Shown: piece after piece, positions 19,631 through 57,105 of the stretch
How the letters are laid out: each line of letters begins with the position of its first letter
Numbering within the stretch: the first letter of the stretch is position 1
Source of the DNA: Candidatus Scalinduaceae bacterium
GTDB taxonomy: Bacteria > Planctomycetota > Brocadiia > Brocadiales > Scalinduaceae
Assembly (NCBI GenBank): GCA_046759445.1
Contig: JBHICG010000010.1
Span: 1 to 64,000 of the forward strand
Direction: 5' to 3'
DNA length: 64,000 bases
Translations under genes and position numbers: made by a program
The notes under the pieces: generated by a model
The model's input: the letters and a program-made list of their open reading frames with translations, nothing else
The model's database searches: none
What the model was told of the DNA's origin: nothing

Positions 19631-19980
19631 TAGGTGCAGCTCTGCCCTCTCAGTTACATTGAAAGGTGTAACATATGGACAGACAATACATTATACTTTT
19701 TGTTAAAACAACTTAAGGGCGTTAGAAGCTCGTGCTATAAGATTACTCGCAAATCTTTTGCCCACAATCTGGCAATTTTATTAGGTCAAATTGTAAAAAA
19801 ACATAACTTATGTACACATAACTAATTATGAATATGGGGGAAATGCTTAGTTACTTTTTCTACGTCGTTTCATGTTTATAAAAATCAACATTTCCTTCTC
19901 TTATATTTTGTAACACATTGATATCTAAGGAGATAAGGATATTCAGCAAAAGCTGACATTATGTTGATTTTTTAGAATTT
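19631..19980 (-). promoter_or_regulatory. Conserved regulatory cassette copy A (enhancer-like sites, IHF-like site, sigma-54 promoter, hairpin/ops-like leader)
   Basis: Homologous to 35236-35730 and 56644-57105. Minus strand TGGGCAAAAGATTTGCG (GG-N10-GC) 19748-19764; TGT-N12-ACA 19873-19890; TATCAATGTGTTA (IHF consensus) 19911-19923; leader motif 19631-19675. Confidence 0.8.
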
Positions 19981-19991
19981 ATGGTATGACA

Positions 19992-20018
19992 ATTCGCTCC
20001 GCCTGTGTCGGGGCGAAT
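19992..20018. terminator. GC-rich hairpin just past the GT4 stop; possible terminator or REP separating units B and A
   Basis: ATTCGCTCC-N9-GGGGCGAAT; no clear U-tract. Confidence 0.3.
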
Positions 20019-20024
20019 GGGGAG

Positions 20025-21182
20025 TTAAAGGTCTTCTATATGCCTCTGTCCATTATAAACAGCACGATAAAAATTCTCATACCGTTCAATCATTCTATGG
20101 AGGCTCATGTTCTCTTTGATATGTTGGTATGCCCTATCTGCAATCTGATTGCTCAATTCTTTATCACTGGCAAGTCTTAATACAGCATCCACTAGAGAGA
20201 CTTTATCGTTGTTCTTAAAAAGAAGCCCGATATGTCCATCCAGCAGAACCTCTTTATTCCCTTGAATGTTGGAAGCAATAACAGGTACTTTTGCAGCCAT
20301 TGCTTCTAATACTGCATTGGGCATTCCCTCGCCGTAAGATGATGGGAAAAGAAACAGATCAAAGACATTTAGTAATTTATTGATCTCTTTTATTACGCCA
20401 GGAAAATGGACTTTACCTAACAATCCCAGGTTTTGAGTAAGTGTTTTAAGTTCACTTTCCTGTTCTCCCTTGCCTACCAAAATGAGTCTTGCAAAAGGAA
20501 TCTTGTGACTGAGCTCATTCATCGCCTTAATAGCAAGTGAAAGATTCTTTTTATGACTAAACCCAGCTACAATACCTATTATATAATCACTGTCTGCAAA
20601 TCCGTATTGCTTACGCAAGTGTCGCTTTTTAACTATATCCATAGGGTAATACTTTTCTGTATCTACACCGTTAGGAATTATTGTTATATTCTTGGGATCC
20701 AAATGAATGTATTCAACAAGCTTTTCTTTGAATGTCATAGAGTTTGTCATAAAATTATCAGTAATATGTTTAAAGAGTTTTCTTAAAAAGAGTTTGCCTT
20801 TCTCGTTAGTTTCATAATTTAGGATTATTTCACTATGATCACTGTATGCAATCTTACAATGTTTACTAAACTTGCTAACCAAACATCCCCAAAAATAGCT
20901 TGTAAAATTTCTGAAATGAACAATGTCTGGTTTTGCCTCATTAACAAGTTTATAAAAGGTGTAAAAATTCCTTAAATTAATGCCAGGTCTACGGTCCATG
21001 AGGTAAAGTGTGACATCCTTTTTTATCTCTACTGCTCTTGGGCCATACATTTCCATACAGATAACTGATGATTCAAATTCTTTACGAGAAAGTCCATTAA
21101 TCAATTCAAGTACAATCTTCTCTGTCCCCCCCCAGTAATCAAAAGCCAAAACTACATGCAGAATCTTTATTTTTTGTTTCAT
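20025..21182 (-). CDS. Glycosyltransferase family 4
   Basis: MKQKIKILHVV (start 21182), GGTEK, IPNGVD, FPSSYGEGMPNAVLEAMAA. Confidence 0.88.
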   Translation of the reverse strand: MKQKIKILHVVLAFDYWGGTEKIVLELINGLSRKEFESSVICMEMYGPRAVEIKKDVTLYLMDRRPGINLRNFYTFYKLVNEAKPDIVHFRNFTSYFWGCLVSKFSKHCKIAYSDHSEIILNYETNEKGKLFLRKLFKHITDNFMTNSMTFKEKLVEYIHLDPKNITIIPNGVDTEKYYPMDIVKKRHLRKQYGFADSDYIIGIVAGFSHKKNLSLAIKAMNELSHKIPFARLILVGKGEQESELKTLTQNLGLLGKVHFPGVIKEINKLLNVFDLFLFPSSYGEGMPNAVLEAMAAKVPVIASNIQGNKEVLLDGHIGLLFKNNDKVSLVDAVLRLASDKELSNQIADRAYQHIKENMSLHRMIERYENFYRAVYNGQRHIEDL

Positions 21183-21376
21183 GTTTTTTTCAATACTTAC
21201 AACAAATGGCCCCGTACTCCAAACCTGCCAGACCCACAAATGCATATGCCTTGCATCGTCAATACCTGTCTCGAAGGAATTTCTTTTATGCATCCTCCGC
21301 CCAGTATACTCATTCGGCCTCTTGAGTTATCTCTTCCATCTCTGTAACGGTTTCATATCTTATTTCTCCCAGCAGG

Positions 21377-22402
21377 TCAATCCGGATTTTTGAAAGCAAT
21401 AACATGGTAATTGGTAGTAAAAAAACGAAAAAAACAATTGATGAACGTTAAAAGAAAAGGAATTTGTTTAATAACCTTCCTTTTAAAATCTGTACCACGA
21501 GCGCTTAAATCAACAAACGGTCCTGTCAAAACAAAATCTTTACTAAAGTTATTACGGACAAGACATTGAAGATCAATCAGAGAAAGTAATCGAACAGTTG
21601 TATAATTGACTCTTTTCATTATCTGCACATATCGATTCATCCAGGCACGGGGCATAAAACCTACAAGTCTAACTTTTACGTGCGGTTCTGGTGTAAATAG
21701 GTTGTATCTATTCGGAGAATTAAAATAAAACCCCCCACCTTTTTTAAGTACTCTCTTGACCTCTTCCACAAATAGTTCCTGCCCTGGCAGGATATGCTCT
21801 ATCACATCAGTAGCATTAACAAAATCAAACAGTTCAGCACGTAGCGGTAAATGTCTAGCATCTGCACATACTAATTTAAGATTCGATATTCGATTTTCTT
21901 CAAGAAATTTACTCCCAATAATCAAATCAACAAGGGAATAGTCAACTGCTATTCCTTTTTTAAAACCCTTCATGATCCAGGGAACTGTCGTGCCTGAACC
22001 ACAACCAATGTCTAAAAATACTTCTTTCCTGGAAAACGTTCTTCCGCAATCTTCCAGTAATTTATTAATCTGGAATAAGCGCTGGGTTCCCTTTTGTTCA
22101 TAAGATAGTTCAAATGCCTTTTGCTGTTCACATAAATTGCTTGTACATCTCTTGCTCAAGCTATAACGGATCTCTATTAATTGTTTGAAGGAGGCTATAT
22201 CGTAGGATGATATGAGCGCATCTCTGATCTTCATTTCTTGTCGAGAAGGTCGGAAATCTGGATTAACTCCACGAAAGTCTGGTACACCTACATACAAGGG
22301 GAAGGTCAAGTTACAAGAAGGGCAATACCTGGCATCTTTTATTTCTGAAAGTGGGCCACGGCATTTCGGACAGACTAATATATTATTTAGAAGTTCTGTC
22401 AA
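21377..22402 (-). CDS. SAM-dependent methyltransferase with Trm112-like N-terminus
   Basis: LVCPKCRGPL..YCPSC..FP...GVPDF; FLDIGCGSG; DVIEH. Confidence 0.85.
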   Translation of the reverse strand: MTELLNNILVCPKCRGPLSEIKDARYCPSCNLTFPLYVGVPDFRGVNPDFRPSRQEMKIRDALISSYDIASFKQLIEIRYSLSKRCTSNLCEQQKAFELSYEQKGTQRLFQINKLLEDCGRTFSRKEVFLDIGCGSGTTVPWIMKGFKKGIAVDYSLVDLIIGSKFLEENRISNLKLVCADARHLPLRAELFDFVNATDVIEHILPGQELFVEEVKRVLKKGGGFYFNSPNRYNLFTPEPHVKVRLVGFMPRAWMNRYVQIMKRVNYTTVRLLSLIDLQCLVRNNFSKDFVLTGPFVDLSARGTDFKRKVIKQIPFLLTFINCFFRFFTTNYHVIAFKNPD

Positions 22403-22550
22403 TTTCGTTATTAATTTTTTTCACTATCGTTTAAATTAACCGCCAATAATTAACTTGTTTACAGGATTAATTGGATTAAGAGGATTTATTATCTTTTGTA
22501 TTTTTCCTGCTTTATCTTATAAATCCTTATCTATAAATAGAAACTTTAGA

Positions 22551-23504
22551 CTATAAATATTTGAAATAATCAATCGTTTTCTTCAAACCCTGCTCCAAAG
22601 GAATATTTGGATTCCAGTTTAATCTATTCCTTGCAAGGCTTATATCAGGTTTTCGCTGAACCGGGTCATCCTGTGGCAAAGGTCTAAAGACAATTTTAGA
22701 TTTTGAACTCGTTAATTTGATTACTTTATGTGCAAGTTCAAGAATATTGAATTCATGAGGGTTGCCAAGATTAACTGGACCGGTAAAGTCATCGGGCGAG
22801 TTCATCAGCTTTACAAGTCCATCAATCAGTTCATCCACATAACAGAAACTCCTCGTCTGTTTTCCATCACCAAAGATTGTAATTTCCCCTCCCATTAAGG
22901 CTTGCATAATGAAACTGCTCACCACACGTCCATCTTTTGGATGCATTCTTGGTCCATATGTATTGAATATCCTTGCAACTTTTATTAACAATTTGTGTTG
23001 GCGGTAGTAGTCAAAAAATAGTGTCTCTGCACACCGCTTGCCCTCGTCATAACAAGACCGTATTCCTACAGGATTTACGTTGCCCCAGTAACTCTCTGGT
23101 TGTGGATGGACATTTGGATCTCCATAAACTTCAGAGGTTGATGCCTGAAGGATTTTTGCCTTTAAGCGTTTGGCAAGTCCGAGCATATTAATAGAACCAT
23201 GAATCGAGGTTTTTGTGGTTTGAACGGGATCGAATTGGTAATGGATTGGGGAGGCTGGACACGCAAGGTTATAAATTTCATCGACTTCAACATATAAAGG
23301 AAAACAGATATCGTGTCTCATCACCTCAAAGAGGGGGTTTGAAAGAAATTGTGCGATATTTGAACGACGACCAGTGTAAAAATTATCTACACACAAGACT
23401 TCGTGTCCTTCACTTAGTAATCTCTCGCATAAGTGTGAACCCAAAAAACCAGCACCTCCAGAGACAAGAATACGTTTATTAGAAAATTGTTTCATACCAA
23501 GCAA
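22551..23504 (-). CDS. uxs: UDP-glucuronic acid decarboxylase (UDP-xylose synthase)
   Basis: [60 protein letters not shown]. Confidence 0.92.
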
Positions 23505-23552
23505 ATCAGATATAGTGTCTATTTCAGCTTTTTCTGTATAGTTCCATGAAGC

Positions 23553-25028
23553 TTATTTTGCTCTTAGCACCTGAAGTGTTGTCCATCTGCATATGAGGTC
23601 CCAATCACTTTTTGTGAAAAAATTAAAAATTCTCATTATAAAAATATAAACACAAAAATATAATAATGCAGACGTAACTAAAATCGATAAAGTAGAAAGG
23701 CTTGCGAAACTTAAAGGAAATACCATTATTCCTACTATTAATGAACTCAACAATGGATAAAATAACCTCTTAATAGGGATTAAATCCGAAAGAGATACTT
23801 TCAAATGTATTTTGGTTTGCCATAGCATGAAACCTGATCCTGCCAATTCTCCAATTACTATTGCTATTGCGGGGCCAGTCATGCCCATAATCCTTTCAAA
23901 AGCAATACCTAAGACTACACTTAAGATTAAGGATATACTAACTGCTATAAAAATTTGTTTAGTTTTCCCAACCGCCTGCAAAATAGTTCTGTAAGCAACA
24001 ATTCTAAAAGGTAATAAAACCAAATATATACGAAATATCGAAACGCTATCAAGATAATCTGATGTAAATAATAATGTAATAATCTGTTCAGCAAAAATAA
24101 ATGTAAATATAAAAAGTGGGAAAAAGACTAGAGCCACCTTTCTAATAGATTCATGCCATAGATGCAAGATACTTGATTTCCTGTCTTCCTTTTGATATTC
24201 AACTATCCTGGGAATCATTAGTTTATTTAGAGTATACGGCATAAGGGCAATAAATGGTAATTCAAAAGCGCCTCTAGAGTAGATCGCAAAATTCACAGGA
24301 TTATAAAAAAATGCAATTATAAATTGATCTATGTATTTTCTCATAACTCCTACAATGAGAGATGCCCCTAGAGGGTAGGAATAAAAGAACTGAGCCTTAA
24401 TGGAGGGCAAGTCAAAAAGTTTAGGCATTCCACCCTCGAGACTGGACAATACATAAACTACAATTATAAACTTTATTATATAAACGGTTAACATAAACAT
24501 TAAGATAATTTTAAGATCTTTACCTAATATAAGAGGAATAATAACAAATAAAAAATTAAATATCGCTGTACCAGCATTTAAGAAAGAGGCAAAGTGGGTT
24601 CTATCGAGGGCAACAAGGGTCGCCTGAGTACACTTGCTGGGTATTAGGAACAAGAAGAAAAGGCTGAATATCCATGAGTAATGTAAAATATCCGGGTTGT
24701 TAAATCCTGCAGTTATCCAAAACCTTAATAAATAGCATATAATAGCAGCAATTAAGCCTAATAAAGATAAAGCAATAAAGACCTGAAATGCTAACTGTTT
24801 TTTTTCTCGACGAGTAGAGGCCCTGGGTATAAAATAAGAAAGACTTTGTGGCAATCCAATAGCAATTGTTGTTGATACTAAAACAGCAATAAGCATGATT
24901 TGACGGAATGTTCCATAGTCATACTTTGTTAGATATCTCACCATAAGCATACCCGTAACTAATTGCAAGAAGGAGCCAATAAAATTGCTTCCCATATAAA
25001 CAATAACTTTGTCTGAAAATTTCTTCAT
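23553..25028 (-). CDS. wzx: Oligosaccharide flippase (Wzx/MOP family)
   Basis: 491 aa polytopic protein; VRYLTKYDYGTF, FAIYSRG, typical Wzx layout. Confidence 0.8.
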   Translation of the reverse strand: MKKFSDKVIVYMGSNFIGSFLQLVTGMLMVRYLTKYDYGTFRQIMLIAVLVSTTIAIGLPQSLSYFIPRASTRREKKQLAFQVFIALSLLGLIAAIICYLLRFWITAGFNNPDILHYSWIFSLFFLFLIPSKCTQATLVALDRTHFASFLNAGTAIFNFLFVIIPLILGKDLKIILMFMLTVYIIKFIIVVYVLSSLEGGMPKLFDLPSIKAQFFYSYPLGASLIVGVMRKYIDQFIIAFFYNPVNFAIYSRGAFELPFIALMPYTLNKLMIPRIVEYQKEDRKSSILHLWHESIRKVALVFFPLFIFTFIFAEQIITLLFTSDYLDSVSIFRIYLVLLPFRIVAYRTILQAVGKTKQIFIAVSISLILSVVLGIAFERIMGMTGPAIAIVIGELAGSGFMLWQTKIHLKVSLSDLIPIKRLFYPLLSSLIVGIMVFPLSFASLSTLSILVTSALLYFCVYIFIMRIFNFFTKSDWDLICRWTTLQVLRAK

Positions 25029-25114
25029 AATCCCTTTTTTTTAGCCAAAAATCTCCACTAATTAACTCGAATTAGAACAAGTTAAAAGTCTAAAGAGTCA
25101 ACTCCTTTTTCTTC

Positions 25115-26308
25115 CTAATTTTTGATAGGGCGTGAATGGTAATTCATCGCTATATTTGCCCTATTATTTACAATTTTATCGTAAACACCTAAAAGGGTCT
25201 TCTCCGCATTAGACCAGTTGTACTTATTAATACCCGCCTGGTGGGCATTATCTTTATAAGTATTAATTAACCTTACATTCCGCAACCTTTTGAATGCATC
25301 CAACAGCGTCTCTTTGCTGAACTTATTAAGGCTAATACCACACTTCTCTTCCTTTACAATCCTGGCAATCTCTCCATTATTGCAGGTCAGTATTGCCTTA
25401 CCAGCAGCCAATGCCTCAAAAAGTTTATTGGGAGCACTATATTTATTATTACCCAAATTATTCTTCAAACCATAATAAATTACATCTGAAACCGATGTTA
25501 TCAAAGGGATTTTGTCAGGTACCGTATATCCTAAATATCGTATATTATCTGCATTTTTAATTGCTTCTGAAATCTTATCTTCCAACGGTCCTTTGCCACC
25601 TATAACTAAAAAAACCCCTTTTTCTGAACGAACAGCTTCGATAAGTGTCAATAAACCCCTTGAGAAAAGAAGATATCCAACAAAGGATATAATCAAACTA
25701 TTTTCGGGAATGCCTAATTCCTTTCTTGCATTCTTGATTTCTGCCTCTGAAAATCGGAAATCTTCGAGCCTCTTCCAATTGCCTATAACTATAGTTCTTC
25801 TTGCTCCACGCCGTCCGTATTCTTCTTCCAATATAGAGCCTACGGTTATTAATAAATCAATCCGTTTTATAAGGAATCGCTCAATTCGGGCAATTGTCCA
25901 TTTTATCAAGGGGTGCACATTATCGGCGAGCATTTCATGATAACTTTCATGGGCATCAAAGATAACGGGAATTTTTAATCTTTTCCCTAACCAATACCCT
26001 AAAGGTAATGTATTAAAATCATGGGCATGGATCACGTCTGGTGTTTTAATTAGTGCACGTTTATATGCTTCTTTCCAGAATCTCCATAAATATCTCAATT
26101 GGGATGAGCCACGTCCATAGGAAGAACTCACAAATATCCGCTCTATTTGTATACCGTCAATATCTTCATGTTCCTTATATTTCACATCACGGTCCCAGCA
26201 TAATATGGTTACTAAATATCCTGCTTCTACAAGAGACCTGGCTTCATTATGCACTCTCGGATCTGGGTCAAAACCATTGGGGAGAAGCATAAGGATTTTT
26301 TTCTTCAT
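25115..26308 (-). CDS. Glycosyltransferase family 4
   Basis: DPRVHNEARSL, IHAHDF, FDAHE, PNKLFEALAAGK; start taken at MKKKIL. Confidence 0.88.
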   Translation of the reverse strand: MKKKILMLLPNGFDPDPRVHNEARSLVEAGYLVTILCWDRDVKYKEHEDIDGIQIERIFVSSSYGRGSSQLRYLWRFWKEAYKRALIKTPDVIHAHDFNTLPLGYWLGKRLKIPVIFDAHESYHEMLADNVHPLIKWTIARIERFLIKRIDLLITVGSILEEEYGRRGARRTIVIGNWKRLEDFRFSEAEIKNARKELGIPENSLIISFVGYLLFSRGLLTLIEAVRSEKGVFLVIGGKGPLEDKISEAIKNADNIRYLGYTVPDKIPLITSVSDVIYYGLKNNLGNNKYSAPNKLFEALAAGKAILTCNNGEIARIVKEEKCGISLNKFSKETLLDAFKRLRNVRLINTYKDNAHQAGINKYNWSNAEKTLLGVYDKIVNNRANIAMNYHSRPIKN

Positions 26309-26411
26309 TTTTTTTTTCTTTAAATGCAAAACGATTATATTTTCTAAATCTGTGTTCATGCCACTTGATGATGAGTTCTTAATTATGATTCATCAGCGTA
26401 TTATTTTAAGA

Positions 26412-28442
26412 TCAGGAATCTTCAACCATTTTTGTTATATTACTTGGAAGCTTTTTTTCTATTCTATACAGGTCCATAATAAATCGGTATTTACCTTTTT
26501 CCTTGGTTGGGCAAACCATAAACTTTTCGATAAGACTTAGTTTGGCACCTGATAAATATTCCGGTAAAGGATACCAACGCCCATCTTTAAATCGCCTGAT
26601 TAAGGCAAAATCAGGTCGAAATCTTTCTACTGGATCTTCATTCATTCCTAATAAAGTAGGGACGGCATATGCATCAGTTTCAATCATTAGGGTATCCGCT
26701 ACCCCACCAATGACAGTAGAATCAGAGTTTACATATTCTCTTAACTTCTTTGAGGTGTCAATCATGGTAAAGGACATATCTTTTGCATAGGATAAATAAC
26801 TATATCCATTAACCAAAAAAAATAATACCCCTATTATTGTAACTACATTTCTGGACAACATTAGCTCAAAATCATATACCATTTGCTTTTTTCTAATTAC
26901 CATGTACATGTAAACTATTAAAGTTATGAACAATAATATAAAAGCCGTTATCAAAATGGCACTTCCAAAATACATACCTTCTTCAACTCCTGTGGTGATA
27001 TTAAGTTTTCTTGAAATCTGAACAATCCAATGTGTTAAGGTCAGGTGGGTAAAAAAGAAAGCAAAAGAGAAGAGGATTAAAAACTGTTTCGTTATATAGA
27101 TAATTTGGGATTTTGATTTTTTGACCATAAAAAAAAGTGACGTAATGAACATAATAACACATGATATCAAACCTGATTGGGCTAGGTTCACATGCAATCC
27201 CAGTCCTACGAGATTCAGAATTTTATTGATGGTCATCATCCCATGAGGTAACAGAAAATATATTGGTATCAGTAGCAATAAATATGACATCCATTGAAAA
27301 TACCAAAACCCATCTTTTCCCCTATAACCGTCATACAAGGCCTTTAGAGAAATACAGCGTACTTCCAATAAAACCTTTGCCGCAAGAATACTCATGGGAG
27401 GAATTAATATAATATATCGTCTATCCGGTTGGAAATGCATAACAGCTATAAAAACACTACCTACAATGAACCAGCTTATTGTCGTAAACTCCAGGGAAGG
27501 CAAATTGGTGAGCAAAGATTGAGGGCTATTTTTTATTGAACATAAAATATGAAGAACGAATATTAAAGATAATGTAACTAAAATAGGTGTCTGGCCAAAG
27601 ATAGGACTTGTTGGAAAGATTGATATATTTCTCAATAACTCAAGCGAACTACTTGAGAGTTGACCAGAATATATCATAGGGTTCGCAGAAGATGACACAC
27701 CAAATAAAAATCCACTTATTAAATGCCAAAAAAGCAAAAGTGGTATGCTCCCAAATATAAAATATACAATCGCAAATTTGTCATTCCCCTTTTTATCCTT
27801 TCGTTGAAAATAATTTTCAAATAAGTATAAAACAAGTATTATAGGAGCAATGACTATACCGTTTGCCTTTGTAAGATAAGCCAAAGACATAGAAAGTCCT
27901 GAAAACAGGTAAAACCATTTATTGTCTTTTCCTTTCTGCCAAAGATAGAGAGTTAAAACAATGAATAATGTTATCATAGTTTCCTGTAAGGCAAGTCTAT
28001 GATATGTCGTAAACACAAAGCAAAAACCCGCAAGACCGGCAGTAAGAAGAGCGCCCCTTCTATCCCATCCACTTTTCACAAAAAGATATAGTAATATTAT
28101 AGTCAGAGACCCAGAGACTGCTGAAACCAGACGGGCCTGCGCAAGGCCTGTGCCAAATAGATTAAAAGAAACATACGAGCCAAGATGGTGAAGAGGAGAG
28201 TTAATGACATTTCTATGATCGTCCATGATCCACTTATCAAATAACACTTTGTTGCGAGCGTTTCTCGTTTTCCATCCCTCATCAGTGAAAAAATGAGCAT
28301 GCGTGTCTGGAGGTGGGTCTGCGCTCAGAAAAGCAAATCTCACAATAAAAATTAAAAAGAATAATAAGAATACAAAGGCCTTCTTATTACTCCATGATTT
28401 CAGCATTGTAAGAAGTTTTTCAGGATTTATCATTAATTTCAC
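26412..28442 (-). CDS. ArnT/PMT-like (GT-C, GT39/83) membrane glycosyltransferase
   Basis: Polytopic; FTDEG, ARLVSAVSG, RLALQE, LAYLTK, RRYIILIPP. Confidence 0.75.
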   Translation of the reverse strand: MKLMINPEKLLTMLKSWSNKKAFVFLLFFLIFIVRFAFLSADPPPDTHAHFFTDEGWKTRNARNKVLFDKWIMDDHRNVINSPLHHLGSYVSFNLFGTGLAQARLVSAVSGSLTIILLYLFVKSGWDRRGALLTAGLAGFCFVFTTYHRLALQETMITLFIVLTLYLWQKGKDNKWFYLFSGLSMSLAYLTKANGIVIAPIILVLYLFENYFQRKDKKGNDKFAIVYFIFGSIPLLLFWHLISGFLFGVSSSANPMIYSGQLSSSSLELLRNISIFPTSPIFGQTPILVTLSLIFVLHILCSIKNSPQSLLTNLPSLEFTTISWFIVGSVFIAVMHFQPDRRYIILIPPMSILAAKVLLEVRCISLKALYDGYRGKDGFWYFQWMSYLLLLIPIYFLLPHGMMTINKILNLVGLGLHVNLAQSGLISCVIMFITSLFFMVKKSKSQIIYITKQFLILFSFAFFFTHLTLTHWIVQISRKLNITTGVEEGMYFGSAILITAFILLFITLIVYMYMVIRKKQMVYDFELMLSRNVVTIIGVLFFLVNGYSYLSYAKDMSFTMIDTSKKLREYVNSDSTVIGGVADTLMIETDAYAVPTLLGMNEDPVERFRPDFALIRRFKDGRWYPLPEYLSGAKLSLIEKFMVCPTKEKGKYRFIMDLYRIEKKLPSNITKMVEDS

Positions 28443-28466
28443 ACCTTGAATCCTTTTACTTAGGCA

Positions 28467-29666: not shown

Positions 29667-29721
29667 TGTGAAATGTTATTCTTTGTACTTAATAAGTTAA
29701 GCCTTAGTAGTCTTATATTAT

Positions 29722-29935
29722 GTCGGGTAAAGAACCCGACCTGCCTGTGCCGTAAGCACCTTTCCGCGTGCAAAACGCACAGGCAGGCTCGTAAAAATAC
29801 GATGTATTCGTAGAGCGACTTCCCATACCGGTAACAAGTCAAGCTTCAGCAACACTTTCATACACCCCTCTAAAAGAGGGGCCAAGGAGATATATATCTA
29901 CACCACCCCCCTTAATCCCCTCTTTCTAGAGGGGA
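29722..29935. repeat. Cluster of REP-like palindromes
   Basis: GTCGGGT-N5-ACCCGAC (29722-29740); CCTGCCTGTGC...GCACAGGCAGG (29740-29787); CCCCTC-TAAAA-GAGGGG (29865-29881); TCCCCTCT-TTCT-AGAGGGGA (29916-29935). Confidence 0.65.
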
Positions 29936-29966
29936 AACTATTATTGAAATTTCTATACAATCAAGT

Positions 29967-32742: not shown

Positions 32743-32756
32743 AACTTCAGTATATA

Positions 32757-42907: not shown

Positions 42908-43011
42908 ATCTTTTTTTTATATTGAAAAACATAATAAATTTTATCAATATTAGCTTCTGAATGTATTTTATCCATTAATTTTACACATTTGTAAACAGTG
43001 TATTCATCTGG

Positions 43012-48452: not shown

Positions 48453-48598
48453 AACGTTAAATTATAAATGGTAAAATACTTCAGATAGTCAACCTTGACA
48501 CTAGAACCTTGCTAATGCTCTTTAAGTTATCTGCTGACAAAATAATTATAAGAAATTGAGAGGTTGAAACCTTCGGATTGTTAATAATATTCAGTAGT

Positions 48599-49777
48599 TT
48601 ATTTATGGCAATTTAAACTTTGGCATGCCAATTCATATAAGAGATTGTATTTAATTGTACAAGCTTCTATTAAATAATTTTCAACATAAATGTTGTTGAA
48701 TTGACTCATCTGCATCCTTAATTCTAAATTTTCACTTAAATCTCTAATACACGAAGTAAATTTATTTATATCTCCAGTCTGAATTAAAAATCCTGTTTTA
48801 TTATCAATAAGAAAATCAACTTGTCCGCCTTTATTATAACTAACAACTGGAAGGCCGGAAGCCATAGCTTCAAGAAATACAATACCAAATCCTTCGTGTT
48901 GACTAGAAGAAACATAAATATCTGAAATATTAAGTAACTGAAATTTTTCTTCATCTGTAACATTTCCAAAGAAGAAAATTCTGTCTGAAACATTTAATTT
49001 CTTGCTCAAAGATTCCAATTTAGGCTTTTCAGGTCCATCCCCAATAATTACCAGTTTCAAATTCGGACAATTTATAGACTTTACAACATTAATTAAATCC
49101 TGAACAGACTTTCGTGAAACCAATCTTCCTACTGTTACTAATAAAATATCATTTAATTTGAAACCATAGTCCTGTCTTTTTTTTATATTACAGACAGGCT
49201 TTTCTATGCCAAGATGAATAATATCTATTTTTTTCGAGATATTATAATAATCAATGGCTCTTTTCATAATATCTGAAGATAAAGCGACAACTTTATCTGA
49301 GTCTTCAATCATTTTCTTTACAGTATAATGAAGAAATGGAGTCCTATGCGGAGAAAGCTTTTTACTCGGATCAAATATATCTCCACCTAAAATAGAAAGA
49401 ATATGCGGTATTTTAAACTTTTTTGCAAGAATAAGGCCTGCTGGAGCAGAAGGAATAGCAAACATAGAGTGCACAATGTCGAATTTTCTTTTTCTTTGCA
49501 ATCTATAACCTACTAGCAAGCAAGCAGGAAAAAATGAAAGCATAGAAATAATTGTTGCAGCATTTTTATCGCCCCGCATAAAAATAGGTACACGGAAAAT
49601 CTCTACATTGTTGTCAATTTCATATGATTTCTGATTATTAAATTTGGAAGTTATAACAGAAACATTGTTATTTTTACATAGTTGTTCTGCAAGCGATTTA
49701 CAAAAAACACCGCCACCACCCCCAAAAGGTGGATATTCATAATTTATTATTAGAATATTCATATTTGAAAGTTTCAC
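48599..49777 (-). CDS. Glycosyltransferase family 4
   Basis: NYEYPPFGGGGG, VGRLVSRK, HEGFGIVFLEAMASGLPVV. Confidence 0.9.
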   Translation of the reverse strand: MKLSNMNILIINYEYPPFGGGGGVFCKSLAEQLCKNNNVSVITSKFNNQKSYEIDNNVEIFRVPIFMRGDKNAATIISMLSFFPACLLVGYRLQRKRKFDIVHSMFAIPSAPAGLILAKKFKIPHILSILGGDIFDPSKKLSPHRTPFLHYTVKKMIEDSDKVVALSSDIMKRAIDYYNISKKIDIIHLGIEKPVCNIKKRQDYGFKLNDILLVTVGRLVSRKSVQDLINVVKSINCPNLKLVIIGDGPEKPKLESLSKKLNVSDRIFFFGNVTDEEKFQLLNISDIYVSSSQHEGFGIVFLEAMASGLPVVSYNKGGQVDFLIDNKTGFLIQTGDINKFTSCIRDLSENLELRMQMSQFNNIYVENYLIEACTIKYNLLYELACQSLNCHK

Positions 49778-49837
49778 TAATCCTTTTAAAACATCAATTA
49801 TTACATAGTTTCTACTGCAGAAAAGAAGATAGAATTC

Positions 49838-50818
49838 CTATTTTGTTATTTCTTTGCATAAATTTAAATCGTTATCTACCATTTCTTTTATTAGGCTTTC
49901 AAATGATATATTATAATTCCAGCCTAATACATTTCTTGCCTTTGTAGTATTACCCTGTAAAAGTTGAACTTCTGATGGCCTATAAAAAGTGTCATCTATT
50001 TCTAAATATTTATATGGGTCAAGCCCCACATAATCAAATGCAATCTCTAAGAATTTCTTTACTGTATGACATTCCCCTGTAGCTACAACATAATCATCAG
50101 GATTATCCTGTTGCAACATCATCCACATTACCTTTACATATTCCTTTGCATGTCCCCAATCACGCTTAGCCTCTAAATTCCCCAATTTTATTTTTTTTTC
50201 GATACCTAATTTAATTTTTGCAACATGTGACGATATTTTACGTGTAACAAACTCAAACCCACGTCTTGGTGACTCATGATTAAAAAGTATTCCACTTAAT
50301 GCAAACATATTATATGCTTCTCTGTAATTTTTTGTGAGGTAAAAACCAGAAACTTTTGAAATGCCGTATGGTGAACGTGGATTAAAAGGAGTTTCTTCGT
50401 CCTGTGGTGCTTCTTTTACGTTACCGAACATTTCACTTGATGCTGCGAAATAAAATTTACATTCAGGCGCCCTTTGCTTTAAAGCAGATAATATGTAATG
50501 TGTCCCATTTACATTTGAATTAATAGTTGAGAATTCATCCTCAAAAGAATAACTAACAAAACTTTGTGCTGCTAAATGGTAACATTCATCCGGCTTAACC
50601 ACTTCTACTACATTAAACAAGCTAGCATAGCTTTCCATTGAAGCGGCATGCAAAATAATTTTATCAATTAAATGATTTATTCTCCATAGACGATGTTCAG
50701 GGTTTTCAAGGGCTATTCTTCTCACAATACCATGAACTTTATATCCTTTTTCTAATAAGTATTCGGCAAGATATGAACCATCCTGCCCTGTAATACCAGT
50801 TATCAATGCCGTTTTCAT
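49838..50818 (-). CDS. gmd: GDP-mannose 4,6-dehydratase
   Basis: ALITGITGQDGSYLAE, LAAQSFV, PRSPYG, GILFNHESPRRG, FVTRKI, LGNLEAKRDWG. Confidence 0.95.
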   Translation of the reverse strand: MKTALITGITGQDGSYLAEYLLEKGYKVHGIVRRIALENPEHRLWRINHLIDKIILHAASMESYASLFNVVEVVKPDECYHLAAQSFVSYSFEDEFSTINSNVNGTHYILSALKQRAPECKFYFAASSEMFGNVKEAPQDEETPFNPRSPYGISKVSGFYLTKNYREAYNMFALSGILFNHESPRRGFEFVTRKISSHVAKIKLGIEKKIKLGNLEAKRDWGHAKEYVKVMWMMLQQDNPDDYVVATGECHTVKKFLEIAFDYVGLDPYKYLEIDDTFYRPSEVQLLQGNTTKARNVLGWNYNISFESLIKEMVDNDLNLCKEITK

Positions 50819-50956
50819 ATTTTAATACTCCCGATAAGTTTAAATTTTCAAATATATTTTATGTTAGCGTAAATGTTCTTGTTTATTTACTCAACTTTAA
50901 GCCATTTTCTAAAAAGCAGTTACCATAAGTCATAGCTAATAATATTAATGTAGATA

Positions 50957-52693
50957 TTACTTTTTTCTTCCAATTGCGGCTATTTTCTTTGTGAAAAGCT
51001 TATTTGATTTGCCATATAACATAAAACTAACTTTGAAGAATAATGTGAACATAGCAGTCAGAAATTTACCAACATAGTTCATGGGATTTTTGCGAAATAC
51101 ATACAGATTAAGTGGAATAACCTCAACATCGTCGAAATTAGAATAATTCAAAATTTGCCTTAGTGAATATTCAGTAAGTGTATTGTAATGATCGAAATTT
51201 TGAGCGAGGGCCTCTATTCCTGTTATTGGGTTTCCCCCATTTAGAGAATGAATTATTACTACTCCATCTTGCCTGAGACTATTCCAACAAAGTCCAAGAA
51301 ACACCAACATCTCGTCTTTTGTTAGGTGATTTATTTCTTGTTCACAAAATATAAGATCAAATTGTTCTTTGTTGTTTTCCAAAAATGGAAACGATTCTTC
51401 TACTCTGCAATTCAGGTTTTTTTTTGTAGCATATTCCACTTTTTCAGGATCTAAATCGATTCCCAGTGCATTTGTGTAACCGTATTTTTTTAACAAATTC
51501 AAAAAATATCCATATCCACAACTTATAAAAAGTATATTGCTTCTTTTATCCGTAGGAACATATTTCAGATAATTGGCCTTATAAAATTCACCAAAAGTAT
51601 AATACCCCTTTTCAATATCTTCTGGCGCCTCCCAAAAGGAGTCAAATGGCTCCATTTTGGCCGTGAGCTTTGTTCCTGTTATCATTTTAAGTCTCCCTAC
51701 TGTAGACTGTAGCAGATTTGTTTCTTTATACCAGTTAACGGTTCTCGACACACCTTGACGGAAACTAAGTTTTGGTGTAAATTTCAAAGAATTTGAAGCA
51801 TTTTTCCATGATAAAACAAAACTCTTTTTAAAGAAATCCATTCTCCTTCGGTGAATGGGGGGCTGAATACCACACGGTCTTAGTATTTTTTCAATAACTG
51901 TTGCCAATACAAGCATTGGCAACAAAGGTATTCTAATTTTTGGTATACTAGTGTCCAGTTGTTCTGCAATTATGGCAACCATGTCATTGGTCGAAATAGC
52001 CTCTTTTCCAGCGAGTAAAAAAACTTTTCCAATTGCTTTTTCAACCGTAATCGCCAGAAAAAAACCTTCAATTAAGTCGTCAACAAATATAAGATGATGC
52101 ATATTTTTCCCATTACCAATCATAAAAAATCTACTTTTTTTCATTGCCTTGAATAACTTTAGAAGCCTTCTATCTCCCGGCCCATACACTTCCGGAAAAC
52201 GGATTACTACCACTGGTAGTTTATCTTTATAAGATAGTACGACTTTTTCACCTTCTAATTTTGTTATACCATAAATATTATCAGGCTTGCATGGAGACTG
52301 TTCATTAATTAAGCCTTGCATACTTCCATAAACGCCAATCGTACTGCCATGTACAAATCGTTTCACACCAGCATTTACGCTAGCTTCGAGGATATTTTCT
52401 GTTCCCTTAACGTTTACATCCCAAAATCTCTGGTCAGGAACATTCATCTCGTGCTGTGCTGCTGCAAGGTGAAAAACAACATCGATCCCTTTTAACAATT
52501 CCAATAAAATATCTCTATCGGTAATAGACGCCAAATTCACTTCAGCACCTTTTTCTTCTATTAGTTTCTTGTTTTCTGACTCTGCGATAGTATTCTCTTG
52601 TCCTAAAACCCTAACTGAATAACCTTTTTCAAGACATTTTATAGCTAGTTGAGAACCAATAAATCCTGTACCACCTGTAATTAATATTTTCAT
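50957..52693 (-). CDS. NAD-dependent epimerase/dehydratase fused in frame to a class I methyltransferase
   Basis: N-part ITGGTGFIG, YGITK; C-part ISCGYG, EQEINHL; internal GGGAG RBS plus ATG at 51685. Confidence 0.8.
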   Translation of the reverse strand: MKILITGGTGFIGSQLAIKCLEKGYSVRVLGQENTIAESENKKLIEEKGAEVNLASITDRDILLELLKGIDVVFHLAAAQHEMNVPDQRFWDVNVKGTENILEASVNAGVKRFVHGSTIGVYGSMQGLINEQSPCKPDNIYGITKLEGEKVVLSYKDKLPVVVIRFPEVYGPGDRRLLKLFKAMKKSRFFMIGNGKNMHHLIFVDDLIEGFFLAITVEKAIGKVFLLAGKEAISTNDMVAIIAEQLDTSIPKIRIPLLPMLVLATVIEKILRPCGIQPPIHRRRMDFFKKSFVLSWKNASNSLKFTPKLSFRQGVSRTVNWYKETNLLQSTVGRLKMITGTKLTAKMEPFDSFWEAPEDIEKGYYTFGEFYKANYLKYVPTDKRSNILFISCGYGYFLNLLKKYGYTNALGIDLDPEKVEYATKKNLNCRVEESFPFLENNKEQFDLIFCEQEINHLTKDEMLVFLGLCWNSLRQDGVVIIHSLNGGNPITGIEALAQNFDHYNTLTEYSLRQILNYSNFDDVEVIPLNLYVFRKNPMNYVGKFLTAMFTLFFKVSFMLYGKSNKLFTKKIAAIGRKK

Positions 52694-52826
52694 CTACTTT
52701 CTCAATATTGTTTTGCCATACAAGAACACAGACATCAAAAACATCTATAATAACAATCTTTACTCTTTCTCTGTGTCTTGAGTGATCAGTCTTTATCTTT
52801 TTTATAAAGGTATTACCATCACTTGC

Positions 52827-54554
52827 TTAGCAAACTCGAACGTGTTCTGCCTTTATCAATGACCTGCCATTTTTTAAAAATCCAAGCCTTTGGAAAGTAA
52901 CACTTACTTCTTCGAGTTCAGCCTGAGTTTTTTCATCATCCCAACCCAATTCTTCAGCAATCAACTCGGCACAAGTTCTTAAGGCTTCTCCTCCAGGGTC
53001 TCCGCCAGTACCAAGGTCTGTTCTACGAAATACTACATCTGCCAGTTTCTGAGCCATTTCTTCTCTAACCGCGTGTATAATTTCAGCTTTTATGACAGTT
53101 GAATCTCCTACGTTTTCGACCCACACTGGATTCTCCTTGATATACTTCAAAACTTCTTGATATTTTGAACCATAATTATGAACCAAAGGACGCATTTCTT
53201 TGGACGATAAAGATGAAGGACCTTTTTCAATAGCTCTATTAAGGAAATCATCAAAGCAATCTATTTGACCACCATAAATAGGCGTTACTGACGTTTTAGA
53301 TTTCGTTATCCTATTTTCTATTTTTTCAAAAATAAGATCAATTGCCCTCTCTGCCTTACCTCTAGCTGTTGTGGCTCGAACTCCCATGAGAGTAACAAGT
53401 CCTTCTATATTGTGTTCTTTCTTGTGATCAATAAGTCGAGAACGCTTTCCAAAACTTATTTTTGTTGTCTCCTGTTTGCTTTCCTCACCAAACAGAGTAA
53501 GACCCGTAAGTATCATAGAAACATCTTTTAGTTTAAGCGCAAAACCAGGACAAGCTTCATTGACTTCATCGATGAAACCTTGAAGCTCTTCTTCGGTGAC
53601 TGATACCTCCTCTGGTATTCGGTTAAAAACCACATGCCAAACACCAATAAGAGTACTGCATCGCCATGGTGCCACAAAGATGTGGCGGCCACCTCTATCC
53701 AAAACAGCATCTGCATCTTTAGTTTTTAAAGGGGTTGCAAAACCATAATTATTAGACAACTTACGCGGAATAACAAAAGCCAGGTCTCTAGAATAGATAG
53801 GTTTGGGATCCAATTGAATGCCAAGCGTTTTTTCAAGTAGTAGATGTGACCATGCACCGGCTGTGTTAAGCACTGCTTTACTGCGAATTTCTAATTGATC
53901 TCCTGCCAGTATGTCTCTGGCTACAACACCTATAACTCTATTTTCTTTTTTAAGAAACCTGGTAACTTCCAAATAGTTTGCAGCTTCAGCACCGGCACCT
54001 ACAGCAGATCTTAGAAAAGACATAGCTAGGCGTGGCGGATTATACATCTGACCATCAAAGAAAACAGCCCCACCTGTGAGGCCATTTTCACAAAGGTCTG
54101 GAAATAGCTGTAAAATTTCCCGCCGTGATATAAAGTGTCCCCTTGGGATTCGTCTTTTTGGATCTGATATTCCAAAGTTACGATCCAGAGTTAATAAATC
54201 ATATACAACAAAACCTACTCTTAGAAATTCCTTACCCTTTATTCCATGTCCATAAGTAGGAATGACTATGGGTAATGGTCGTACAAGATGAGGAGCGATA
54301 TGTAAAAGTGCAGATCGTTCACGAGATGATTCACGTATCCGGCACAGGTCAGCATGTTGAAGATAACGTATGCCACCATGGACCATTTTTAAATGATTTG
54401 CAGATGTGGCGTGACAAAAATCATTTTTTTCTACTATGGCAACCGATAGTCCACGTAATGCTGCATCCCATGCGGCACAAACTCCAAAGATTCCTCCACC
54501 CACAATCACAAGGTCATATTCCTTCTCAACTAATTCTTGAATGTGTCTCTTCAT
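52827..54554 (-). CDS. FAD-dependent glycerol-3-phosphate dehydrogenase/oxidase family protein
   Basis: DLVIVGGGIFG, ATSANHLKMVHGGIRYL, APHLVRPLP, EEMAQKLADVVFRRTDLG. Confidence 0.88.
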   Translation of the reverse strand: MKRHIQELVEKEYDLVIVGGGIFGVCAAWDAALRGLSVAIVEKNDFCHATSANHLKMVHGGIRYLQHADLCRIRESSRERSALLHIAPHLVRPLPIVIPTYGHGIKGKEFLRVGFVVYDLLTLDRNFGISDPKRRIPRGHFISRREILQLFPDLCENGLTGGAVFFDGQMYNPPRLAMSFLRSAVGAGAEAANYLEVTRFLKKENRVIGVVARDILAGDQLEIRSKAVLNTAGAWSHLLLEKTLGIQLDPKPIYSRDLAFVIPRKLSNNYGFATPLKTKDADAVLDRGGRHIFVAPWRCSTLIGVWHVVFNRIPEEVSVTEEELQGFIDEVNEACPGFALKLKDVSMILTGLTLFGEESKQETTKISFGKRSRLIDHKKEHNIEGLVTLMGVRATTARGKAERAIDLIFEKIENRITKSKTSVTPIYGGQIDCFDDFLNRAIEKGPSSLSSKEMRPLVHNYGSKYQEVLKYIKENPVWVENVGDSTVIKAEIIHAVREEMAQKLADVVFRRTDLGTGGDPGGEALRTCAELIAEELGWDDEKTQAELEEVSVTFQRLGFLKNGRSLIKAEHVRVC

Positions 54555-54639
54555 AGTTGTTTCTTATACAATCGTTCTAAATGATTTTGCTATCATTCGT
54601 ACAAGCATTGCAGTTTGTAAAATAAATATTTGTTAAAAC

Positions 54640-55240
54640 CGAATGATGGCGGATATCTTAATATTCAAACATTATTCTATTAAGTAAAATGATGTAATCT
54701 TGGTACATGCCAAAATGATGGGCGGGCACTATTGTCTCCTATAAAAAGATAGGGGGAGTAATATCTTTTTTGAGTCTTTCTCTTTTAAAAAACCGTTTGC
54801 CAACTCCCAAGCGAGCACCGTAATTGTTTGTTTATCAAAAAGCCTCTTGACATCATTTTCGATTGGGAGTCTATCTTCAATTTTTTGATTTGATGCGATT
54901 GATAACACTTCAAGATTTTCTTTGGTAACAATCTGCCTTCCTGCCATGATATAGCAAAGCGTCTTGTTATTTTTTTTAGTATTAAAGAACAATCTTCTGA
55001 AGTGGTTTCAAATAAGTAATCAGATTTTTGTCCAACTATGGCTTTCTTTTTAAATTGAGAAAAATAATCATTCTGCTTTCCTTCACTAAATAATAGTATT
55101 TTTGTAAATTTATCACCATTTGGATATATAGCATGGAACATTGTGTCCATATTTTTCATTGCGGCATCAAAGAACTTATCAGGATCATAGCAACTATAAA
55201 AATGAACATGCCCATCTACTATCAACTTTGTTTCTGCCAT
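54640..55240 (-). pseudogene. Frameshifted metal-dependent hydrolase (PHP/amidohydrolase-like)
   Basis: VDGHVHFY start; reading continues in shifting frames as AGRQIVTKENLEVL, AW(G)VGKRFFKR, YLFIGDNSARPSFW; shifts at short homopolymers (T8 54970-54977, C3 54806-54808). Confidence 0.7.
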
Positions 55241-55288
55241 TTAAAATGCTTAAGCTAAAGTAACTATTATTTTCTAATAAGATTCTTG

Positions 55289-56227
55289 CTATTTACGGAA
55301 GACAAAAACAAGACCCCCCAAGAGGCTGATAGCCGTCACCATTAAAAACCAGGAGATAGATAGACTGAGCGCCTTAGAGTGCGTAACACCGACTTGTGCA
55401 AATAGATAAACATTGATCCCTTCCCTGACACCAAGTCCATTTATTGAGATTGGCAGCATAGATATGACGGTTATTATTGGAAAGAAAAAGAAAAAATAAC
55501 TCCATGGAACTGTAATATCCAACGCATTGGACAAGATTATATACACAAAAATATTCATAACCTGAATAATAATAGACAATAGAACTGCGTTAAGAAAAGA
55601 ACTCTTGTGATTTTCATATTTTCCAAATGTTTCGAAAATCTCAAAAATAGCCTTTTTTATTTTTTCAATCTTGAGCTTACTGACTAGATTAATGGTTAGG
55701 TTTTTAACATGACTATTTATTACAATGATAGTTCCTGCAATGAAAGTTGCTGTTATCCCTAATATTAAAATTTTAACAAGGTAGTCTTCCGGCAAAGAAT
55801 AGATAAATATGAGGGATACCAGTCCAATCAAAAGCAATGCAGCGAGGCCAGTATATCTTTCAAGAAACACTGTAGTAATTGATTCTTTACCTTTTTTGGA
55901 GTATCTATAAAGGTCATACCCCTTTACTGCATCACCTCCGATAGAACCGGGAAGGAAATTGTTGAAGAACATACCTACAAGATAGAAAGAAAAAAGTCTT
56001 AGAGTCGTAACCCTAATGTTGTGGGCCACTAGTAATACTTTCCAACGCAATGAACTAAGGTATTGAGCTACAATATAAAGCATCGCACATAATAGACATA
56101 GCTTGAGGTCGATAGACACAAATGTTTGTGAAAACATATCTAAGCCGGTTTTCTTTAATAAGAAAGCAAGTATACTTATACTAATAAGTAATTTTATTAG
56201 GATAAAGGTCTTTTTTTTATGGAACAT
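55289..56227 (-). CDS. Lysylphosphatidylglycerol synthase TM-domain / flippase-like membrane protein (UPF0104), paralog 2
   Basis: RWKVLL, FFNNFLPGSIGGDAVK, ERYTG, LPISINGLGVREG. Confidence 0.85.
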   Translation of the reverse strand: MFHKKKTFILIKLLISISILAFLLKKTGLDMFSQTFVSIDLKLCLLCAMLYIVAQYLSSLRWKVLLVAHNIRVTTLRLFSFYLVGMFFNNFLPGSIGGDAVKGYDLYRYSKKGKESITTVFLERYTGLAALLLIGLVSLIFIYSLPEDYLVKILILGITATFIAGTIIVINSHVKNLTINLVSKLKIEKIKKAIFEIFETFGKYENHKSSFLNAVLLSIIIQVMNIFVYIILSNALDITVPWSYFFFFFPIITVISMLPISINGLGVREGINVYLFAQVGVTHSKALSLSISWFLMVTAISLLGGLVFVFRK

Positions 56228-56229
56228 AC

Positions 56230-56472
56230 AATAACCTCGATTCCAAATTGGTCAAGAATATACATTTCTCAAGTGATCCACCAATACTCTCATCTCCGTC
56301 TGGAACAACACAGTGCCAATAACATCCTAAACCAAAATATGCCAGCCGGTGAAACAAGTGACCTCCCAATAAAACCTGCTGCTCCTGTTACCAAGATAGT
56401 TTTACCCTGAAGGTCTTGAAAACTTTCTGGCAGAGGTGTATAGCTATTTATTTTTTGAGACGCTTTTATCAT
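56230..56472 (-). pseudogene. Remnant of NAD-dependent epimerase/dehydratase
   Basis: GKTILVTGAAGFIGRSLV, continuing after two +1 shifts as HRLAYFGL / DVIGTVL, then lost. Confidence 0.7.
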
Positions 56473-56643
56473 CGCAATTTATTTTTTGTAGCTATCAATT
56501 TTATTATTTTTTTCATTCTTAATTCTGTCACTCCACTTCTCTCTCTCATACGATTTAACAGAAATAACATCCAAAAACTTACCTCACATTTTCTCTAATT
56601 TATATACACAATTACTTATGTAATTTAATAGATTCTCATTATA

Positions 56644-57105
56644 TGGGCATAGCTCCGCCCTCTCAGTTACATTGGAAGATATAACATAGTAATGATTTTC
56701 ATTTTGAAAAGACTTTTCGTCACAGATTCACTTCGTTAACTATTAAACATCTGACGAGAAATAAAAGAAATAAACATATTCTTATTTCTTTGCAACCTGC
56801 TACCATAAAAGTTTCATTATCGCTTTTGTTAAAAACGACTTAAGCAAGTCAAAAACGGAAAGGATATATGATTTAACGCAAATATTTTGCCCAAATCTGA
56901 CAAGTTTCTGAAAGCAAATTGTAAAATATACAACCTATGAACACATAAGTAATTACGAATAAATGAAAAACAACTATTTTTTCCCAATGTAAATCTATGT
57001 TTATAAAAACCAACACTTTTTCTCTGAAAATTTCATAACATATTAATAATCAAGGCGATAGGAATATTCAAAGAAAGCTAACAATATGTTGTTATTTTAG
57101 AATTT
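56644..57105 (-). promoter_or_regulatory. Conserved regulatory cassette copy C
   Basis: Minus strand TGGGCAAAATATTTGCG 56877-56893; TGT-N12-ACA 56998-57015; leader motif 56644-56688. Confidence 0.8.

Follow-up and report, generated by a model that had tools for sequence, protein, structure and literature searches.

We analyzed a stretch of 64,000 nucleotides (hereafter the window) from a Candidatus Scalinduaceae bacterium, corresponding to G000:C10:1-64000 in a genome (G000) of 3.62 Mb with 37% GC that is 97% complete. Its minus strand carries nearly all the genes, which serve polysaccharide synthesis and export and several of which belong to XrtA-associated families. Three long gene blocks are each headed by a copy of the same control region and, judging from sequence, we find it reasonably probable that this region is a duplicated two-step module, in which initiation at a sigma-54 promoter would be followed by loading of the NusG paralog UpxY at an opsX-like site located downstream. 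The observations behind this proposal are the homology of the copies, the concentration of conservation in motifs, the spacing of these motifs, the downstream element with its restriction to four copies and the presence of genes for RpoN, Rho and a single UpxY; from these we infer every functional step. A preliminary description of the window had proposed a sigma-54 enhancer/promoter cassette in three copies: that a duplicated module of this type heads polysaccharide blocks (16.8, 15.0 and at least 19.5 kb) was borne out, whereas the opsX-like element, the UpxY paralog and additional copies had been missed.

The three regions (19631-19980, 35236-35730 and 56644-57105, hereafter copies A, B and C) have the orientation of the genes, on the minus strand, and are homologous to one another, with 72-78% identity over 219-298 nt by blastn (E 1e-32 to 1e-42). 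Every motif that had been listed for them was found at its position. In copy A, these are two degenerate 18-bp inverted repeats that form a distal pair with centers 21 bp apart and are predicted activator sites (19941..19979, the two 18-mers quoted previously being at 19941-19958 and 19962-19979), a weak IHF-consensus match between this pair and the proximal site (19911..19923), the proximal TGTT-N10-AACA site that is the predicted main enhancer (19873..19890, center 119 bp from the -24 GG), a conserved AT-rich block in the enhancer-promoter interval, possibly a site for a bending protein (19805..19834), and a sigma-54-type -24/-12 motif (19749..19764, predicted start near 19737). Their minus-strand equivalents in copy B are the distal pair at 35689..35724, the proximal TGTT-N10-AACA at 35622..35639 (center 117 bp from the -24 GG), the AT-rich block at 35555..35584 and the -24/-12 at 35500..35515 (predicted start near 35488), and those in copy C lie, in the same order, at 57066..57102, 56998..57015 (115 bp), 56932..56961 and 56878..56893 (predicted start near 56866). 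The box previously written as TGT-N12-ACA is this same proximal site (19873-19890, 35622-35639 and 56998-57015), with 110, 108 and 106 nt between it and the -24 GG; the distances of 111, 109 and 107 given before are identical but counted inclusively. The GG-N10-GC spacing is exact in A, B and C.

Pairwise identity between the three copies reaches 94% in the promoter, 93% in the proximal box, 89% in the AT-rich block (64% over all six copies described below), 85% in the IHF-like site, 81% in the second distal site and 78% in a TATCTC block, with only 69% in the first distal site, compared to 50, 52, 69 and 51% in the spacers. Conservation is thus concentrated in the motifs, and not spread evenly along the copies, a pattern that the preliminary description had named as refuting its proposal. 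The count of three copies is right for the window but too low for the genome, which holds six homologous copies: the additional ones head 13.7 kb of glycosyltransferase and ABC-transporter genes on contig C5, precede glmS on C16, and lie between a ferritin-like gene and a kinase/regulator pair on C8 (copy E). On C18, a glycosyltransferase-like gene is preceded by a seventh site, with the same box at the same spacing and with spacers that are not alignable. Copy E (G000:C8:74374, minus strand) has another -24/-12-like site on its other strand, which shares the box of the first at a distance of 90 nt and faces the ferritin-like gene, an arrangement that could possibly correspond to a bidirectional enhancer. 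We also observed a TTAAGT(T/C)GTTTT block on the minus strand of copies A (19705-19716) and C (56832-56843), 20-35 nt below the predicted start, which is conserved in C5 and in G001 copies.

Homology between the copies comprises a core of ~250 bp and a separate block of ~45 nt, the leader between the two being not alignable. This second block, which lies inside the coordinates of the preliminary description without being mentioned there, consists of a hairpin and ATGTAACTGAGAGGGCGGAGCT, located 90 (A), 236 (B) and 206 (C) nt below the -12 C, on the minus strand at 19635..19672 (hairpin 19653-19672), 35240..35277 (hairpin with a z of -6.4 compared to shuffles) and 56648..56685, respectively. 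Its sequence reads GTTA(C/T)A-N7/8-TGTAAC followed by T(G/T)AGAGGGC(G/A)GAGCT, and it is the part that is best conserved across species. It occurs four times in the genome, in A, B, C and C5, each time ahead of 13.7-19.5 kb of polysaccharide genes, and is absent from the glmS (C16) and C8 copies; a single-mismatch match (C4:107912) and two 12-mer matches (C43 and C77) lacked the upstream block and were set aside. Copies B, C and C5 have a GCGNAGC core with the sequence GCGGAGC, which agrees with the Bacteroides consensus. In the published descriptions, the E. coli ops element is GCGGTAGC and the Bacteroides opsX is YGCGNAGCR, and Bacteroides UpxY also reads upstream duplex DNA (PMC11685472). 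By this comparison the core appears to belong to the opsX type, and the block upstream of it is invariant and correspondingly placed.

Across the class, the element was found in 20 of 132 genomes, among them 19 of the 28 genomes of the family, with 2 matches for a reversed control. Eighteen of these 20 genomes encode a UpxY scoring over the cut-off and another one, G090, has a split UpxY. A looser pattern added six genomes, of which only G030, with the element 91 nt after upxY, is a persuasive case. In G018, box, promoter and element precede an XrtA-type deacetylase gene in an arrangement that cannot be aligned with the module, and G004 has box and promoter with a variant element. Beyond the class, an exact scan of a species collection gave at least 119 loci, which span ten or more phyla, when simple arithmetic with 19.5 fixed bases predicts ~2 loci by chance. 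The 80 loci listed include records from Calditrichota, Bacteroidota, Acidobacteriota, Desulfobacterota and Syntrophales, Nitrospinota, Nitrospirota, Planctomycetota, Auribacterota, Chlorobiaceae, Verrucomicrobiota, Rhodothermales and Clostridia, with many Scalindua records among them. At 76 of these 80 loci the element lies outside same-strand open reading frames (ORFs) of at least 100 aa, and at 18 it has a upxY-like gene within 1.5 kb, being directly before this gene in 12 cases and directly after it in 6. From the loci where upxY was not adjacent, 46 genomes were chosen (mostly leaving out repeat genomes and those titled Scalindua), of which 35 encode a UpxY over the cut-off elsewhere. The 61 downstream ORFs that were scanned, out of 72, included 21 from polysaccharide families, 2 from the NusG family and 6 ambiguous ones.

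G000 itself encodes a single UpxY (NF033644 score 135, cut-off 100), as a stand-alone gene on C39, together with two housekeeping NusG proteins and Rho, while UpxZ was detected in the positive control and not in the genome. Two similar nusG-rplK-rplA operons are present (G000:C79 and C105), reflecting either a duplication or a contig from a related strain. This UpxY scores 80.5 with the RfaH model, compared to a cut-off of 144.5; it keeps the TRGV of RfaH with R73 and has R in place of K10, two residues named as DNA contacts of RfaH (PMC7593976).

The anatomy of the element was then described from 101 de-duplicated sites, whose counts are inflated by kinship. At positions that the search pattern left free, a T is found in 92 of the 101 sites, followed by a purine in 94. 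A pyrimidine-purine step is a feature of the consensus pause, and the T-purine pair fits it, the predicted pause having an ambiguity of two bases in its register. A perfect 6-bp upstream partner for the TGTAAC arm exists in 37 of the 101 sites, compared to 5.6 in shuffles (maximum 16 of 500); 26 of these 37 hairpins need G-U pairs and one is a double change, and the loops span 4-22 nt. Such variable loops and G-U pairing point to an RNA hairpin and away from a protein-binding palindrome, which bears directly on an alternative where the duplicated sigma-54 promoter acts alone and the downstream block is an operator in DNA to which a dimeric repressor or activator binds, with no role for UpxY. 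An inverted repeat accompanies the conserved upstream block in all four genome copies, the promoter half stands on its own evidence and UpxY is encoded on another contig, all of which such an operator would accommodate; it would not explain why the element is strand-specific and found beside upxY at 18 of the 80 loci listed, nor why its core fits the published opsX consensus, and we regard it as unlikely.

Several observations nevertheless weigh against a role of UpxY at this element. Its flanks are G..T instead of the Y..R of opsX, and the core is broken in copy A, with an A where 100 of the 101 sites have a G, so that the element of copy A may be weakened; 64 of the 101 sites have no perfect hairpin. 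G002 (93% complete) carries the element and no UpxY was found in it, the strict element is missing from 39 of the 57 genomes of the class that have UpxY, the base rate of UpxY in the class is already 57 of 132, and 11 of the 46 cross-phylum genomes have no UpxY over the cut-off. Among the 61 downstream ORFs, 15 are toxin-antitoxin, integrase or other genes and 17 have no Pfam match, and the UpxY proteins encoded beside the element form no single clade in a quick tree. Finally, a strict sigma-54 match lies within 700 nt upstream at only 5 of 30 family-level loci, so the coupling is not obligatory and the element would also serve other promoters.

Turning to the initiation half, the genome encodes RpoN (score 406, cut-off 277) and 14 full-length enhancer-binding proteins, all outside the window, where the preliminary description had placed the activator. 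When relatives were scanned for a TGTT-N9/10-AACA box with a -24/-12 motif 90-120 nt away (a range of 31 nt), 18 matches were found in 12 of the 132 class genomes and none with a reversed control; matches outside the window were inspected at nine loci, and two of the 18 proved to be chance matches in coding sequence, which counts against the pattern. The box center lies 115-119 bp from the -24 GG in 13 of 15 measured matches (the 18 minus two chance matches and one duplicate), and at 105.5 and 126.5 bp, one helical turn off, in the other two; these matches are not independent and form about six groups, four at 115-119 bp and two one turn away. The C5 copy, missed by the pattern, has a center-to-GG distance of ~107 bp. 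A conserved geometry of ~115-119 bp between site and promoter is what is expected of a looping enhancer. Among the targets that such promoters have in relatives are glmS, wecB and an XrtA-type deacetylase gene, and the distribution of these promoters, which was obtained by blastn and the strict pattern, is a lower bound.

The sigma-54 reading of the module promoters also holds when confronted with the possibility that the UpxY site is real while the 250 bp upstream serve another sigma factor or are a drifting duplicated leader that keeps GG-N10-GC by descent. The usual sigma-54 consensus has a T at -26, where the module has a G, and since the copies are homologous their motifs are partly inherited, the spacers being still 50-69% alike. 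Descent alone would however hardly account for the same enhancer-promoter spacing being found again at C18, in G007 and in genus g27, whose promoters are not alignable with the module, or for GG and TTTGC being invariant in 10 aligned copies when their surroundings vary, which makes this second alternative quite unlikely. The three cassettes are probably not the sole promoters of the cluster, since a separate sigma-54-like site, which is not a module copy, lies at 38694..38709 (minus strand) ahead of a fibronectin-domain gene (36328-38469) and another one is found at C10:64334, beyond the window. The latter belongs to a 62-aa MerR-type helix-turn-helix gene (G000:C10:64043-64334) that precedes wza, and a similar MerR-type gene follows wza in three relatives. 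Together, these sites suggest that the cluster has at least five promoters. The syp locus of Vibrio fischeri reportedly has four.

Other attributes that had been given to the module fared less well. The IHF site is perfect in copy A, as was said, but it is mismatched in B and C, and perfect matches occur 380 times genome-wide (0.1 per kb); it is placed above the proximal box and not between box and promoter, and two proteins match IHF models best yet below the cut-off, one of them being HU-like, so that the support for IHF is weak. A TyrR box is TGTAAA-N6-TTTACA; the box of the module, which had been compared to it, shares its geometry only, with different inner bases, and TGT-N12-ACA alone occurs 1748 times in the genome. 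The two candidate regulators that were scored for TyrR among the 14 (on C25 and C10) reached 261 and 279, compared to 576. Membership in a PEP-CTERM/PrsR system was not supported either: no exosortase (PF09721) was found in this 97% complete genome, the positive control being detected, the best PrsR score was 424.7 (cut-off 502.6) and the PrsK score 93 (cut-off 300), and motif and spacer differ, the module site ending in AAACA at 104-108 nt from the promoter motif. A scan for PEP-CTERM proteins found none in the genome, with a positive control that was silent too.

Coming back to the downstream element, its excess of G-U-rich hairpins could also be taken for a cis-acting RNA that binds a protein or is processed after transcription, in place of a DNA site for pausing and loading. 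In copies B, C and C5, a second small hairpin can close over the core. Energy folding as DNA gave no mini-hairpin for the 12-mers of B and C, an outcome that is neutral here since the model used has no sheared G-A pair. On the other hand, the primary sequence is nearly invariant while most sites lack the hairpin, and the equivalent Bacteroides upstream region is read as duplex DNA (PMC11685472). Rfam searches did not reveal an RNA family: there was no match within the window, nothing credible for copy B at E up to 10, no match to JUMPstart (RF01707) at E up to 10 and one tRNA among 20 foreign loci. We consider a purely RNA-based role improbable. Last, a miniature mobile element or an assembly artefact without regulatory role is largely refuted and hardly deserves further thought: copy positions do differ between close relatives and the two nusG-rplK-rplA operons hint at mixed contigs, but the copies share no terminal inverted or direct repeat, which excludes the miniature inverted-repeat transposable element (MITE) envisaged in the preliminary description, every copy is co-oriented with its downstream gene and not randomly placed, and A, B and C share a single contig with no more than 72-78% identity.

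Which response-regulator enhancer-binding protein would act on TGTT-N9/10-AACA is best answered by a PrsK/PrsR-like pair at C25:14358-17861, a candidate to which we give somewhat less than even credence. Its regulator (14358-15719) is the genome's top PrsR-like match and the only one of the 14 with orthologs in both G018 (76%) and G085 (68%), two incomplete genomes, where its recognition helix is conserved; it adjoins a 705-aa membrane kinase that aligns end to end with the PrsK model (93 bits). The pair adjoins dnaE and is conserved order-wide, despite there being no exosortase in G000. On the other side, 82 of 91 other members of the order encode this kinase, which makes it near-universal, and no copy was found in either G007 or G082, two genomes with the enhancer pattern, so that co-occurrence does not settle the case. 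A PAS-kinase/regulator pair at C10:64716-67317, 0.7 kb past the window, is a more doubtful second candidate: orthologs exist in 6 of 27 kin, where wza or ugd always follows directly, and it was demoted because its regulator has no ortholog in four genomes that carry the box (G018, G082, G084 and G085; best 44-48%). The regulator behind copy E, also tried as activator, was found in none of 91 other genomes and rejected. The earlier suggestion of a PrsR-family activator encoded outside the window is therefore plausible as a resemblance and not as a membership.

In the two-step model that we favor, an enhancer-binding protein bound at TGTT-N9/10-AACA sites would loop to the -24/-12 and open the sigma-54 promoter, and polymerase would then pause 100-250 nt downstream at the opsX-like site. 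There, the non-template strand of the paused bubble may fold into a GCG-G-AGC mini-hairpin. ATGTAACTGA would be recognized upstream, as duplex DNA, and the pause may be prolonged by an optional RNA hairpin. UpxY would load in trans, as RfaH does, and oppose Rho, so that polysaccharide blocks of 15-20 kb could be transcribed to their end. Copying of the module between loci would recruit newly gained operons into one regulon. A broader and tentative conjecture, which we hold to be on the doubtful side, is that ATGTAACTGA(G/C)NNGGCGGAGCT is a cross-phylum loading signal of the UpxY branch, ancestral to the operon-specific opsX of Bacteroides, and that anammox bacteria fused it to a sigma-54 enhancer promoter, obtaining a copyable plug-in under an order-wide PrsK/PrsR-like pair.

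The distribution of the module among relatives is consistent with such copying. The glmS promoters of two same-genus genomes are 68-74% identical to A, B and C over the proximal half and only 53-54% to the glmS copy of G000 itself, and these two genomes also have the proximal half ahead of a different gene, of which the G000 ortholog lacks it. Because the glmS promoters of relatives are closer to A, B and C and gene placement differs, we infer that the module was moved or overwritten between loci, in the manner described for putative mobile promoters (PMC3575422). Within 60 kb around the regulator in G002, only ugd and one epimerase gene were found of the genes of the window.

In a 2020 survey, it was stated to be unknown how NusG paralogs besides RfaH are recruited (PMC7593976), and Bacteroides is one case that was solved later (PMC11685472). 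A near-invariant 22-nt site found in ten or more phyla, often beside upxY, offers a substrate for loading tests, and regulons can be searched with it. In anammox bacteria, it adds a predicted control circuit for matrix polymers, made of RpoN, a PrsR-like activator and UpxY; matrix polymers underlie the formation of anammox granules. Neither the element nor a coupling of sigma-54 with UpxY was found in the literature searched, mostly without subscription papers, or in Rfam. Of greater interest are the cross-phylum opsX-type site and the way in which it is combined with a sigma-54 enhancer in a unit that can be copied; the promoter half stands out less, as it appears ordinary in kind, with the SypG-controlled syp promoters as a precedent.

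All three blocks headed by the module are on the minus strand. Block A (1..19486, at least 19.5 kb) leaves the contig at its end and contains genes for a glycosyltransferase, amidotransferases, a class II DAHP synthase, a hydrolase pair, a chorismate lyase-like protein, an acyl-CoA ligase and an O-ligase; the DAHP synthase, hydrolase pair, chorismate lyase-like and ligase genes form a cassette (6280-12148) with an unannotated 88-aa carrier-protein-like ORF (7898-8164). Block B (20025..35067, 15.0 kb) encodes glycosyltransferases, WecB, an XrtA-type polysaccharide deacetylase, methyltransferases, a flippase-like protein and an epimerase. Block C (39685..56472, 16.8 kb) begins with the decayed fragment of an epimerase gene (56290-56472), a short remnant within 56226-56472 that is the first gene past copy C, followed by flippase-like, Gmd, glycosyltransferase, carbamoyltransferase-like and amidotransferase genes; several of its short ORFs, including 54785-55240, resemble broken genes. 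The only sizeable plus-strand gene of the window encodes a stand-alone PilZ-domain protein (57321-57650) and is divergent from copy C, and in G007 a PilZ-like gene is also divergent from an enhancer promoter ahead of wecB, making a link to c-di-GMP possible. Two metatranscriptomes matched the window (shares of 0.09 and 0.07), as contigs from which start, strand and level cannot be read; many unrelated RNA contigs pile up on a short GC-rich hairpin (29904-29955) that resembles a widespread palindromic repeat. Scans of 1-39000 for sigma-70 promoters and terminators gave counts no higher than in shuffles.

Among known systems, the opsX/UpxY system of B. fragilis is the closest for the downstream half, with a leader element before polysaccharide operons, a GCG-N-AGC core, a conserved upstream block, a hairpin ahead and a UpxY-family protein in the genome (PMC11685472). 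It differs in that its sites are operon-specific with Y..R flanks, when one common near-invariant site with G..T flanks is found here and recurs in ten or more phyla; its promoters are invertible instead of sigma-54-type, and its hairpin ends at -9 to -16, compared to ~-16 to -18 (or -14 to -16 in an alternative register) for the optional hairpin described here (PMC11685472). In G000, upxY is a lone stand-alone gene without upxZ, and not the first gene of an operon as in B. fragilis (PMC11685472); upxY does directly follow the element, as in Bacteroides operons, at 12 of the 80 foreign loci listed. The likeness to the RfaH ops/JUMPstart system of E. coli lies in a monocistronic NusG paralog with several unlinked operons as its predicted targets in trans, a stem-loop before the site and the kept TRGV/R73 (PMC7593976, PMC7819879, PMC6391919, PMC2864571), while the core lacks the flipped T6 of GCGGTAGC and the protein scores as UpxY and not as RfaH.

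For the initiation half, the V. fischeri syp/SypG system similarly combines a polysaccharide cluster, several sigma-54 promoters, one enhancer motif and one activator, but its motif is TTCTCANNNTGMDWN and SypG is encoded within the syp locus, whereas here a whole 250-bp region is homologous between copies and is followed by a putative antiterminator site (PMC10162802). PEP-CTERM loci controlled by PrsK-PrsR share with the module a site of 17-18 bp that ends in ACA upstream of a -24/-12 and is sometimes repeated, the XrtA-associated families and a PrsK-like membrane kinase encoded beside a PrsR-like regulator (PMC1569441, PMC9850573). Their box is closer to the promoter (mean spacer of 63 nt, range 32-92, compared to ~105 nt) and ends in TTTACA instead of AAACA (PMC1569441), and the present system differs further by both proteins being below cut-off, by the lack of an exosortase and by targets that are biosynthetic operons and not single PEP-CTERM genes. 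Finally, like putative mobile promoters, the module consists of homologous non-coding blocks found before unrelated genes, with replacement between loci, and it is distinguished from them by a greater age (60-77% identity, compared to their 80% criterion) and by a resolved multi-part anatomy (PMC3575422).

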